DNA of 64,000 nucleotides from NCBI GenBank assembly GCA_965116875.1, contig OZ220733.1:4256001-4320000 (forward strand). Direction: 5' to 3'. Of this stretch, positions 15,542-17,315 are shown one piece after another. Position 1 is the first letter of the stretch, and the number at the start of each line of letters is the position of its first letter. The notes below the pieces were generated by a model. That model worked only from the letters and a program-made list of their open reading frames with translations, was not told where the DNA came from and made no database searches. The DNA comes from Candidatus Latescibacterota bacterium. Lineage in GTDB: Bacteria; Latescibacterota; UBA2968; GCA-2709665. A program made the translations under genes and the position numbers.

Positions 15542-16440
15542 ACCGATCATTCCATCCGGCCGCGGGAACAGGTGTCGAAGTCGACGGATCACAGGGCCTG
15601 ACGGACGCGGGCTGGGGCGGGTTGTTCTGGAAACGGCTTCTGAAGAACCGGTTGGCTGCCGCGGGCGGCGTCCTGCTGCTGGGATTCCTGTTGCTGGCGA
15701 TCGCCGCGCCCCTGGCCGCGCCGCACGATCCCTATGCCCAGAATCTCTATGAACGTCTCCAGCCGCCGTCACTGGCGTATCCGTTCGGTACGGACGACTT
15801 TGGACGGGACGTTCTGAGCCGTGTCATTTACGGCGCGCGAATTTCGCTGCGTGTCGGGGTTGCCGCCGTGCTGATCGCACTGGTCCTGGGCGTTCCGATC
15901 GGGCTCGTTTCGGGGTACTGGGGCGGCGCGCTGGACCAGGTTCTGATGCGGGCGATGGATCTGATGCTCGCATTTCCCAGCATCCTTCTGGCCATCGCCA
16001 TCGTGGCGATCCTGGGACCGGGGTTGGAGAATGCGATGCTGGCGGTCGGGATCGTCGCGGTGCCGCAGTACGCCCGTCTGGTGCGGGCATCCGCGCTGAC
16101 CGTGCGTGGACAGGACTACGTTCAGGCTGTACGGGCGCTTGGCGCGGGGGATTTCCGTATCCTGTTTTTTTCGATTCTTCCGAACTGTCTGACGCCACTG
16201 ATCGTGCAGTCCACGCTGGGTCTGGCAACCGCTATCCTCGATGCCGCGGGCCTGAGCTTCCTGGGATTGGGCGCGCAGCCGCCCACGCCGGAGTGGGGCG
16301 CCATGTTGACCGGTGGAAGGGAACTGGTGCTGCGTGCGCCGTGGGTATTGACGTTTCCGGGCGTGGCGATTTTCCTGACCGTATTGGCATTCAACCTGGT
16401 TGGAGACGGATTGCGCGACGCCCTGGATCCAAGGACCTGA
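15538..16440 (+). CDS. dppC: Peptide ABC transporter permease
   Basis: FGTDDFGRDVLSR, LSFLGLG, PEWG, GDGLRDALDP; ATGA overlap with dppB. Confidence 0.92.
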   Translation: MNRSFHPAAGTGVEVDGSQGLTDAGWGGLFWKRLLKNRLAAAGGVLLLGFLLLAIAAPLAAPHDPYAQNLYERLQPPSLAYPFGTDDFGRDVLSRVIYGARISLRVGVAAVLIALVLGVPIGLVSGYWGGALDQVLMRAMDLMLAFPSILLAIAIVAILGPGLENAMLAVGIVAVPQYARLVRASALTVRGQDYVQAVRALGAGDFRILFFSILPNCLTPLIVQSTLGLATAILDAAGLSFLGLGAQPPTPEWGAMLTGGRELVLRAPWVLTFPGVAIFLTVLAFNLVGDGLRDALDPRT

Positions 16441-16458
16441 CCTGGCCGGAGAAAGCCT

Positions 16459-16487
16459 TTGACTTCCGCATTCCGGTGGCGTATATT
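16459..16487 (+). promoter_or_regulatory. Sigma70-type promoter of the small ORF/structured RNA unit
   Basis: TTGACT-17 nt-TATATT. Confidence 0.65.
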
Positions 16488-16514
16488 CCGCTTACACGGA
16501 AAGGAGGTGGTCAA

Positions 16515-16550
16515 ATGATCGAATCGACCAGTGGAGGTGGCTGTAGTTAG
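16515..16550 (+). CDS. Putative 11-aa small peptide MIESTSGGGCS
   Basis: Preceded by an extended SD (AAGGAGGTG, 16501-16509) just downstream of a consensus promoter. Confidence 0.4.
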   Translation: MIESTSGGGCS

Positions 16551-16749
16551 GTGCGCTGCCGGGTGCGGGAGAACATCTCGTCTGGTAACGCGCCTGGCGA
16601 ATCTAGACAGCCATCGAAAGACAGGCGATCCGTCGGTTTGACGGGCCCCGGCCACTCGGACGGGGCGCTGTGAGATGGAAGCCGTCTCAAGAGTTGCGCC
16701 GTGAGGAGATGTGGCCGGAGGATCGGCTCCCGAATCGCGGCGCATTTTT
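16551..16749 (+). ncRNA. Candidate highly structured RNA, family not recognised
   Basis: Nested long-range stems 16551-59/16737-45, 16566-71/16727-32 and 16573-79/16706-12, internal hairpins, and a U-tract at the 3' end. Confidence 0.5.
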
Positions 16750-16770
16750 CTGTCTTATAAGGGTTTGTGC

Positions 16771-16799
16771 TTGACAAAATCACGCATGCTCTATATCTT
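16771..16799 (+). promoter_or_regulatory. Sigma70-type promoter of rplM
   Basis: TTGACA-17 nt-TATCTT. Confidence 0.6.
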
Positions 16800-16880
16800 C
16801 TGAGGCTTGACAATGCGTGGAATTGTCACGGAGAGGGGGTGAGTTCGAATTCGGCGTCGATGTGGACGCCGTTCGGATTT

Positions 16881-17315
16881 ATGAATACGCCAAGCGCTAA
16901 AAGATCTGACGTCGAACGCAAATGGTTTCTGGCTGATGCCGACGGTAAGGTGCTGGGTCGTTTTGCAAGCGAAGTTGCACGGATCCTGATGGGCAAACAC
17001 AAGCCGTATTATACGTCCCACGTGGATACCGGTGATCATGTCATCGTGGTCAACTCCGACAAGATCATGGTCAAAGGCGCAAATAAGCCCGACCAGAAGC
17101 TTTATACACGATTCAGCGGATATCCTGGAGGTCTGAAAACCAAAACCCTGAAGCGGGCGCTCGAAACGCAGCCGCAGTTCGTGCTGGAACATGCGATACG
17201 GGGAATGTTGCCGCGCACGAAACTCGGGCGGAGGATGATGAAGAAGGTCCGGATTTACACGGGTTCCGATCATCCGCACGACAGTCAGGCGCCCGAAGCG
17301 ATCGACCTTGCTTGA
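16881..17315 (+). CDS. rplM: 50S ribosomal protein L13
   Basis: RKWFLADADGKVLGRFAS, GKHKP, DTGDHVIVVN, SGYPGGLK, IRGMLP. Confidence 0.97.
   Translation: MNTPSAKRSDVERKWFLADADGKVLGRFASEVARILMGKHKPYYTSHVDTGDHVIVVNSDKIMVKGANKPDQKLYTRFSGYPGGLKTKTLKRALETQPQFVLEHAIRGMLPRTKLGRRMMKKVRIYTGSDHPHDSQAPEAIDLA

Follow-up and report, generated by a model that had tools for sequence, protein, structure and literature searches.

What is encoded in the few hundred bases that precede the ribosomal protein gene rplM in a Candidatus Latescibacterota bacterium, and does it serve that gene or stand on its own? The window analysed here is a stretch of 64,000 nucleotides (nt) of contig OZ220733.1 from this organism, and all coordinates are positions within it. 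An initial annotation, made from the letters alone, had described a separate small transcript at this place, with a strong Shine-Dalgarno (SD) sequence, an 11-codon open reading frame (ORF) and a multi-stem RNA that matched nothing known, and had left its role between a ribosome-binding structured RNA, such as a decoy, a hibernation RNA or a dual-function sRNA, and a peptide-coupled attenuator. We find that 16494–16750 is a real and structured small RNA gene, to judge by its promoter and terminator an independent and free-standing one, and very probably a genuine conserved small RNA (sRNA) related to Ms_IGR-5 (Rfam RF02471). By sequence comparison it is best described as a divergent variant of the Ms_IGR-5 family with an added domain. 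That this divergent relative works by engaging ribosomes and being translated, as its sequence suggests, has in our judgement an even chance of being right.

The small RNA gene and its fold

The gene has its own promoter and its own terminator, and the promoter of rplM is separate, which agrees with the earlier view of an independent unit. The sequence features named at that stage (promoter, SD sequence, the peptide MIESTSGGGCS, a second SD sequence, the U-tract and the rplM promoter) are all present. The parts of the gene, with its helices labelled P0, H0, P1 and P2, are the following.

16459–16487, plus strand: promoter TTGACT-17-TATATT of the small RNA, from a promoter scan; sigma-70-like, 10 of 12 consensus positions.
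16494–16750, plus strand: the small RNA itself (about 257 nt), with A16494 as its predicted start and the U-tract as its end; full length kept within the order to which the window belongs.
16495–16497 with 16531–16533, plus strand: helix P0, CAC/GTG (element 16495–16533), enclosing the SD bulge and H0.
16498–16512, plus strand: SD1, GGAAAGGAGGTGGTC, with 15 contiguous pairs to the 3′ tail of 16S rRNA; mostly displayed as the P0–H0 bulge.
16501–16509, plus strand: AAGGAGGTG, the SD stretch first noted.
16508–16512 with 16526–16530, plus strand: hairpin H0, TGGTC/GACCA, from RNAalifold; start codon in the loop.
16515 (ATG) to 16548–16550 (TAG), plus strand: the mini-ORF MIESTSGGGCS, 11 codons plus TAG.
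16533–16540, plus strand: internal SD2, GGAGGTGG, 8 nt ahead of the stop codon; largely masked by pairing with ACAGCCATC in P1.
16536–16615, plus strand: long hairpin P1 with base GGTGGCTGT/ACAGCCATC; the stop codon (16548–16550) is paired with 16594–16596.
16619–16687, plus strand: irregular hairpin P2, including TCCGTC (16629–16634) with GATGGA (16674–16679); this order only.
16696–16749, plus strand: intrinsic terminator, a hairpin (16696–16743) with basal stem GCGCCGTG/CGCGGCGC and inner GCCGG/TCGGC, then TTTTT.

A DNA search recovered the element once per genome in 40 of 41 related genomes, the single miss being a 92%-complete draft. Promoter hexamers, SD, ATG, stop codon and terminator align in 30 relative loci, and both the -35 and the -10 hexamer are kept across all of them; in the 1.6 kb scanned for promoters two such sites were found, where shuffled sequence gives 0.6 ± 0.8. 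The plus strand folds better than its dinucleotide shuffles (z = -4.79, with 0 of 200 shuffles as good; z = -2.31 for the minus strand), and from the 30 sequences of the order RNAalifold predicts 64 pairs, 14 of which show compensatory double changes. Counts of paired cells given for stems below refer to this order alignment.

The 5′ end of the RNA is where the SD sequence is held. In an 82-sequence alignment across phyla (A3), P0 pairs the 3–4 nt before the SD with the 3–4 nt before the second AGGUGG, and three of its four pairs are each changed on both sides in 21–30 sequences. The covariation score of P0, 0.401, is reached by 0 of 500 shuffles, which give 0.126, and sliding the partners yields no more than 0.102. 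The stem of H0 is invariant within the order, as is the ATG in its loop, and the loop neighbours of the ATG vary. P0 and H0 abut on the 3′ side, and therefore the 10–11 nt GAAAGGAGGU form, at the very 5′ end of the RNA, a bulge on an unbroken helical scaffold.

What this bulge carries is an unusually long match to the ribosome. Paired with the tail of the genome's own 16S rRNA (GGATCACCTCCTTTCT, the end of its single 16S gene), SD1 forms 13 Watson-Crick and 2 G-U pairs without a break; the anti-SD match that had been given as 9 nt is present but longer, at 15 nt. Only four sites in the 5.45-Mb genome reach 15 anti-SD pairs, and one of these is the antisense of the 16S gene itself. Positions G6–C19 of the RNA, the SD1 region, are invariant in the 30 sequences, and SD2 is invariant too. 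The ribosome-binding features proposed at the outset (SD, start codon and ORF) appear, from such comparisons, to be under selection. Elsewhere in the same genome, outside the window, C1:147764-167295 holds eight sites within 20 kb that have a stretch of about 35 nt in common, each opening with a 12–14-nt anti-SD match (GAAAGGAGGTGATATTGGAATCCACGTCGC-like); from their sequence these look like a tandem family of paralogous 5′ regions.

Downstream of the mini-ORF the sequence is G+C-rich for about 200 nt, up to and including GCGGCGCATTTTT, with the U-tract at 16745–16749. At the base of P1 the SD2 stretch GGTGGCTGT is paired with ACAGCCATC in 270 of 270 cells. The constraint seems to lie on the SD-like sequence itself and not on its partner, because the 5′ strand of P1 is invariant while the 3′ strand drifts by C/U changes that preserve G-C or G-U pairs. 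The pairs that extend P1 gave a modest signal across phyla (58/68 and 36/68 paired, against maxima of 56 and 34 in 1000 shuffles). In P2, compensatory changes occur at eight pairs (RNAalifold), and TCCGTC/GATGGA is paired in 180 of 180 cells. In the terminator stem GCGCCGTG/CGCGGCGC all 240 of 240 cells are paired, and double changes occur from GC to AU in 16 sequences and from CG to UA in two; its inner hairpin GCCGG/TCGGC covaries as well.

The initial annotation had drawn the RNA behind the stop codon as one closed multi-stem domain, a fold that we rejected on pair counts and energy. Its closing stem, GTGCGCTGC/GCGGCGCAT, has 239 of 270 cells paired and zero compensatory changes; the 3′ strand of this stem is used instead by the terminator, whose CG to UA change breaks it. 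Two further stems, TGAGATGG/CCGTCTCA (195/240 cells) and CCGTC/GACGG (129/150), are displaced by the compensated TCCGTC/GATGGA helix, and CGCCTG/CAGGCG is paired in 134 of 180 cells. Enforcing the closed fold gives -105.1 kcal/mol, against a minimum free energy (MFE) of -122.4, i.e. about 17 kcal/mol worse. The two remaining long-range stems, CGGGAG/CTCCCG and ACATCTC/GAGATGT, join segments that are complementary but nearly invariant (94.9% of cells paired, 29 sequences); a local hairpin, CGGGA/TCTCG, fits equally (98.6%), and informative covariation is found in neither pairing.

The segments concerned are the apex of P1, CGGGAG-AA-CATCTC (16566–16579), and the inside of the terminator, GAGATGT..hairpin..CTCCCG (16706–16732), of which the apex is a near-perfect complement. 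In one genus (L214) the apex–terminator helix seems to slide, with two pairs gained at one end. This complementarity may represent a pseudoknot, or an alternative state or switch.

Kinship with Ms_IGR-5

The whole window against Rfam returned no family at gathering level, including 6S RNA, tmRNA, signal recognition particle (SRP) RNA, RNase P RNA and known riboswitches. The initial annotation, too, had been unable to match the RNA to tmRNA, SRP RNA, RNase P RNA or common riboswitches. In a relaxed cmscan search RF02471 matches 16494–16633 (26.9 bits, E 3.5e-4), and the cmscan alignment contains a shared 5′ module made of the SD-like GAAGGAGGUGGUC, a hairpin and GAGGUGGCUG. The RNA can no longer be said to match nothing known: its 5′ third is a sub-threshold match to RF02471, and relatives of an intermediate kind, in Blastocatellia and Acidimicrobiales, pass the threshold. 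Scr1601 (E 1), CC2171 (E 1.4) and Six3os1_3 (E 4.3), which also appeared in the relaxed search, were treated as noise; CC2171 has only the SD stretch in common and gave no genome match at E ≤ 1.

Set beside Ms_IGR-5, the 5′ module of the window RNA can be aligned base for base (ACAC..GAAAGGAGGUGGUC, the start-codon hairpin, GUG(G)AGGUGGCUG, stop). Both have the same covarying P0 and the same mini-ORF layout, both end in a terminator hairpin, and the window RNA, like Ms_IGR-5, is predicted to be a free-standing gene. The window RNA differs in having the extra hairpin P2 and an elaborated terminator, and its ORF is one base out of register with the conserved motif, which is restored by a 1-nt shortening before the stop codon. 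It also lies in a different phylum (its near relatives are titled Candidatus Latescibacterota) and before rplM. The consensus structure of RF02471, as given in the cmscan output, is without P0 and the base of P1. Passages of published reports describe ribosome footprints on Ms_IGR-5 homologues in Mycobacterium abscessus and M. smegmatis (PMC4974804), describe Ms_IGR-5 in Streptomyces avermitilis as a discrete sRNA transcription unit, one of two there with an Rfam match (PMC8780764), and count it as RNA-seq validated in S. lividans (PMC8079986). Our full-text literature search, which left the original description of Ms_IGR-5 and supplements outside its reach, found no paper giving Ms_IGR-5 a function.

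To follow the family further, a degenerate pattern taken from the window (AAGGAGGTGGT, 10–32 nt, AGGTGRCTG) was searched in public DNA at one genome per species. It matches at least 120 stretches. The 80 of them obtained as loci comprise, going by their record titles, 68 Actinomycetota, 4 Blastocatellia, 2 Planctomycetota and 2 Candidatus Latescibacterota (near-identical to the window's relatives), with one each from Zixiibacteriota, Sumerlaeota, 'Syntrophobacter' and 'Heliobacteriaceae'. The RF02471 threshold is passed by 8 of 8 Actinomycetota-titled loci, by one of two Blastocatellia (L097, 49.6 bits) and by none of the seven other loci tested (not passing: L148, L081, L104, L133, L137, L090, L122 and L063). 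The locus with the 'Heliobacteriaceae' title, L081, falls in the same GTDB phylum as a Blastocatellia genome; its taxonomic label is probably wrong, and it does not support occurrence of the family in Firmicutes.

The cross-phylum alignment has 20 invariant columns. With R2, a 73-position model of the shared 5′ module built from it, the window reaches 53.9 bits (E 7e-13), a value that is partly circular, the window being in the seed. Within the window's phylum, a model of the 5′ domain (R1) found 52 of 151 genomes, including 17/18 of family f1 and 30/30 of f2. At E ≤ 0.01, R2 found 73 of the 151: again 17/18 of f1 and 30/30 of f2, 3/5 of f8, 20/64 of f3 and 2/2 of f4 (the last two weak), and 0/31 in nine other families. 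Beyond this order the matches are mostly weak; among five weak ones inspected, the module was present in four and one looks false. At E ≤ 1e-4 the module occurs in 57 of 121 Actinomycetota (51 of 115 when six unpublished genomes are left aside), 11 of 121 Acidobacteriota and 4 of 101 Planctomycetota, and each of five genomes searched individually had one match. Four loci of family f3, in the same class (L190–L192 and L194), carry a shorter, divergent RNA with SD1, a TTG start, a 12-codon frame to TGA, GGGAGGTTGG as second SD-like element and then a terminator; they score about 23 bits with the cross-phylum model. Given such versions, the family is probably under-counted.

The mini-ORF and its proposed translation

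Of 98 distinct sequences of the family, 93 have an ATG, GTG or TTG 4–16 nt after GGAGG, opening a frame that ends 7–9 nt after AGGTGRCTG (19 nt in three sequences). Shuffling the loops gives such a mini-ORF in 15.3 ± 3.5 of 98 (maximum 26), and all 98 have one if CTG is allowed as a start. The five CTG-start sequences are four with Acidimicrobiia-type titles and one Actinomycetota. With eight more sequences of the order, an NTG-started frame is found in 106 of 106. The first base of the start codon is variable (ATG 63, TTG 23, CTG 11, GTG 9), and the stop codons of the 98 are TAG (88), TAA (5) and TGA (5). ORF length is 11, 12, 13, 14 or 15 codons, and the spacer from SD to start, which changes by single nucleotides, takes nine values from 4 to 14 nt.

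The peptide is another matter. Start-to-stop the frame is preserved, but the reading frame over the invariant AGGUGGCUG differs by lineage: the motif is read GGA-GGU-GGC-UGU in this order, mostly GAG-GUG-GCU elsewhere and AGG-UGG-CUG in Planctomycetota, and in this order an extra G before the motif is compensated by one base less before the stop. Because the frame shifts in this way the peptides are entirely different between lineages (..TSGGGCS, ..TREVAAR, ..GNQRWLLQ, ..CAGDCWGCDA, ..CTAGRLVT). Within the order, 19 contiguous bases (G33–T51, codons 5–11) are invariant with zero synonymous change, and codons 2–4 freely change amino acid; in Actinomycetota, exchanges between Arg and Cys track the base-pair covariation of P0. 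The SD and ORF on which the earlier description rested are kept, with lengths of 11–15 codons, and its peptide is not. As far as the alignments indicate, the constraint is on nucleotides and not on the peptide, and a frame kept without its peptide bears the mark of selection for translation as such and not for the product. Dual-function sRNAs (SgrS/SgrT, RNAIII/hld and SR1/SR1P, for example) encode peptides that are conserved and have a function. The window RNA resembles them as a small RNA with a putative short ORF, and differs in that the peptide of its family is not kept and the ORF overlaps conserved helices.

How might translation act in such an RNA? In the architecture that emerges from comparison, P0 and H0 display SD1 as a bulge, with the start codon in the loop of H0. 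The 11-codon frame passes through the 3′ strands of H0 and P0 into the 5′ strand of P1, where it ends: its stop codon is paired within P1 and lies 8 nt behind the masked SD-like GGAGGUGG. Of the two hairpins further downstream, the second is the terminator. We propose that a 30S subunit would dock on the displayed SD1, and that full SD1 pairing, through GGUC, would melt H0 and free the start codon. The translating ribosome would unzip P0 and P1 and so unmask SD2, which could pair with the anti-SD of the same ribosome upon reaching the stop codon. With the stop codon in the A site, 5 nt would separate the unmasked GGAGGUGG from the P-site codon downstream of it (8 nt from the stop), and this spacing is that of SD–anti-SD pairing at initiation. 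The next P1 helix begins at the stop codon itself.

Because translation would unzip P0 and P1 and unmask SD2, the RNA may toggle between a closed, untranslated state and an open, ribosome-bound and translated one. The conserved function would be the act of translation and not the peptide. The RNA would most likely titrate free ribosomes or give a read-out of them, in trans or with effect on its own fate, and would be less likely to control rplM next to it. In the open state the RNA might titrate ribosomes, report ribosome availability, expose another element or set its own lifetime. Internal SD-like elements in the recoding sites of prfB and dnaX act on elongating ribosomes. The window RNA is like them in having an SD-like element inside an ORF, at a fixed short distance before the stop and followed by a stable helix; it is unlike them in being without a conserved slippery sequence or an extended downstream frame, and recoding is not proposed. 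That the RNA acts through translation of its mini-ORF is a claim that we believe and doubt in equal measure.

A hint of expression comes from contigs of four RNA libraries from four studies that cover the element. A 232-nt contig (library X17) lies on 16494–16718 with three differences and a 196-nt contig on 16537–16732, and there are shorter pieces; a 159-nt contig includes 51 nt of a relative's promoter, and another of 1305 nt, from a relative, extends across the upstream gene. On the discrete transcript that had been expected, these RNA-library contigs speak for coverage of the element and give no strand or ends. RNA-contig cover over rplM is absent; neither this absence nor DNA runs with small word shares served as evidence on expression or habitat.

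Several points weigh against a translated, ribosome-engaging relative of Ms_IGR-5. The RNA-library contigs attest presence only, not strand, ends or level, and those of X20 and X22 also carry promoter or upstream-gene sequence, so that DNA carry-over or read-through is possible. Translation and 30S binding are themselves predictions from sequence and comparison. The RF02471 score lies below the 45-bit gathering cut-off, and the search pattern demanded AAGGAGGTGGT and AGGTGRCTG, so the cross-phylum invariance of those bases is partly built in. Kinship among the sequences, which are not independent events, inflates both the ORF and the covariation counts. With its 5′ strand invariant, the base pairs of P1 show one-sided changes only, and an unanchored search for P1 partners by best complementarity was discarded, since shuffled 5′ strands score equally. 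Finally, the RNA directly precedes rplM in 36 of 40 testable loci of the order, which could reflect a functional link.

The alternative that survives best is a conventional non-coding RNA, either a base-pairing sRNA or else a sponge that takes up a protein or the 16S tail of idle 30S subunits. Here the SD bulge would be the seed, and the ORF would be incidental or would only evict bound ribosomes. A bulge on a rigid P0/H0/P1 scaffold is indeed seed-like, its complementarity to the 16S tail spans 15 nt, and no conserved cis target was found. A pure seed, however, leaves the invariant, correctly spaced NTG unexplained, as it does a frame that stays open despite length changes in multiples of three and has an in-frame stop in 106 of 106 sequences. 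We consider this alternative unlikely.

Neighbouring genes and the link to rplM

The gene order at the locus is the end of an OppC/DppC-type permease gene (at 16440), the small RNA, rplM and rpsI. Overlapping minus-strand ORFs (207 and 88 amino acids) and a 40-amino-acid plus-strand ORF have no Pfam match. Two features belong to the neighbour:

16771–16799, plus strand: rplM promoter TTGACA-17-TATCTT, separate and outside the small RNA.
16881–17315, plus strand: rplM (Pfam Ribosomal_L13, E 2.4e-44).

The 5′ region of rplM (16832–16881) has a long SD-like sequence, GGAGAGGGGGTGAG, 36 nt upstream of an ATG that agrees with the N-terminus usual for L13; it also has an alternative in-frame GTG at 16842, and a hairpin GGCGTC..GACGCC between GTG and ATG. 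The true start may lie elsewhere than at the ATG, or the region may be a leader structure for L13 feedback.

Position alone would suggest a cis element, a translation-coupled attenuator of rplM-rpsI in which ribosome traffic on the mini-ORF sets the terminator at 16696–16749 and read-through adds to rplM transcription. L13 follows 332–542 nt downstream in 32 of 32 loci from genera g1–g6 and two named relatives, and in 4 of 4 from g10 and g11. The P1 apex is complementary to the inside of the terminator, in the nearly invariant pairing described above, and could compete with termination. Leader-peptide attenuators of the trp, his and leu type combine a very short ORF behind a strong SD with a stop codon right at a stable helix and an intrinsic terminator further downstream, an arrangement that the window RNA resembles in its SD, its short ORF, its stop at a helix and its terminator.

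Against these stands the setting of the RNA in its relatives. In g8 (2 of 2 testable loci; two more contigs end early) and g9 (2 of 2) it precedes an unrelated, conserved membrane-protein gene, and L13 was found nearby in 0 of 83 other loci, within the available flanking DNA. A convergent gene, probably nitrobindin/Rv0813c-like, is the most frequent neighbour in Actinomycetota (21 of 80 loci), and the non-actinobacterial loci showed no common neighbour. The consensus-like promoter of rplM is kept in 25 of 30 aligned relatives. The terminator is fixed and compensated, but the candidate antiterminator pairs are invariant, hence uninformative, and one change favours the local hairpin; the alternative fold is the one 17 kcal/mol worse than the MFE. 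The idea that the long-range motifs (CGGGAG..CATCTC with GAGATG..CTCCCG) are tied to rplM adjacency fails as well, as g9 is without both and g8 keeps them without rplM. Unlike leader-peptide attenuators, moreover, the window RNA has no conserved run of a regulatory codon, its downstream gene has its own promoter and differs by lineage, and the antiterminator alternative is without covariation support. A cis attenuator is quite unlikely because rplM adjacency is lineage-specific and rplM has its own promoter, and the earlier suggestion of a peptide-coupled attenuator of rplM is weakened to that extent.

The membrane-protein gene of g8 and g9 (L211:485-1129; L068 from about 1876 onward) is conserved, M..LHFDIRDLF..IRLGWSGKKIWTGLC..., and a Pfam scan of the L211 copy found no Pfam family. 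Nor, probably, is the RNA an L13 leader (RF00555), which it resembles in its position upstream of rplM: it ends at a terminator before the rplM promoter and its relatives are not rplM-linked. A search of 16300–16950 gave no gathering-level match to RF00555, which was not listed at E up to 10 either, only four other families being listed.

Least probable of all, and very much so, is a small protein gene with the 11-residue peptide as product and the downstream hairpins as a stabilising 3′ untranslated region: ORF, start and stop are kept in every member examined and the C-terminal TSGGGC is invariant within the order, but codons invariant without synonymous variation indicate constraint on nucleotides that double as helix strands, and the lineage-specific peptides, the shifting frame over the conserved motif and the Arg/Cys exchanges tracking P0 all speak against it.

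Small RNAs common to several bacterial phyla are very few, and the family of the window RNA is one of them. Every copy examined has a ribosome-binding site far stronger than those of messenger RNAs and a frame that is kept without its peptide, a combination that points to function via the act of translation. We would go further only tentatively, to the possible but doubtful view that the window RNA and Ms_IGR-5 form one ancient, multi-phylum family of 'ribosome-gated' small RNAs that read out or buffer free ribosomes. If true, this would be a principle distinct from riboswitches, leader-peptide attenuators and base-pairing sRNAs. For annotation, a single Rfam family could be widened across phyla with a better structure (P0, H0 and P1). 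The family includes the harmless and genetically tractable Mycobacterium smegmatis and Streptomyces, which makes the hypothesis directly testable.

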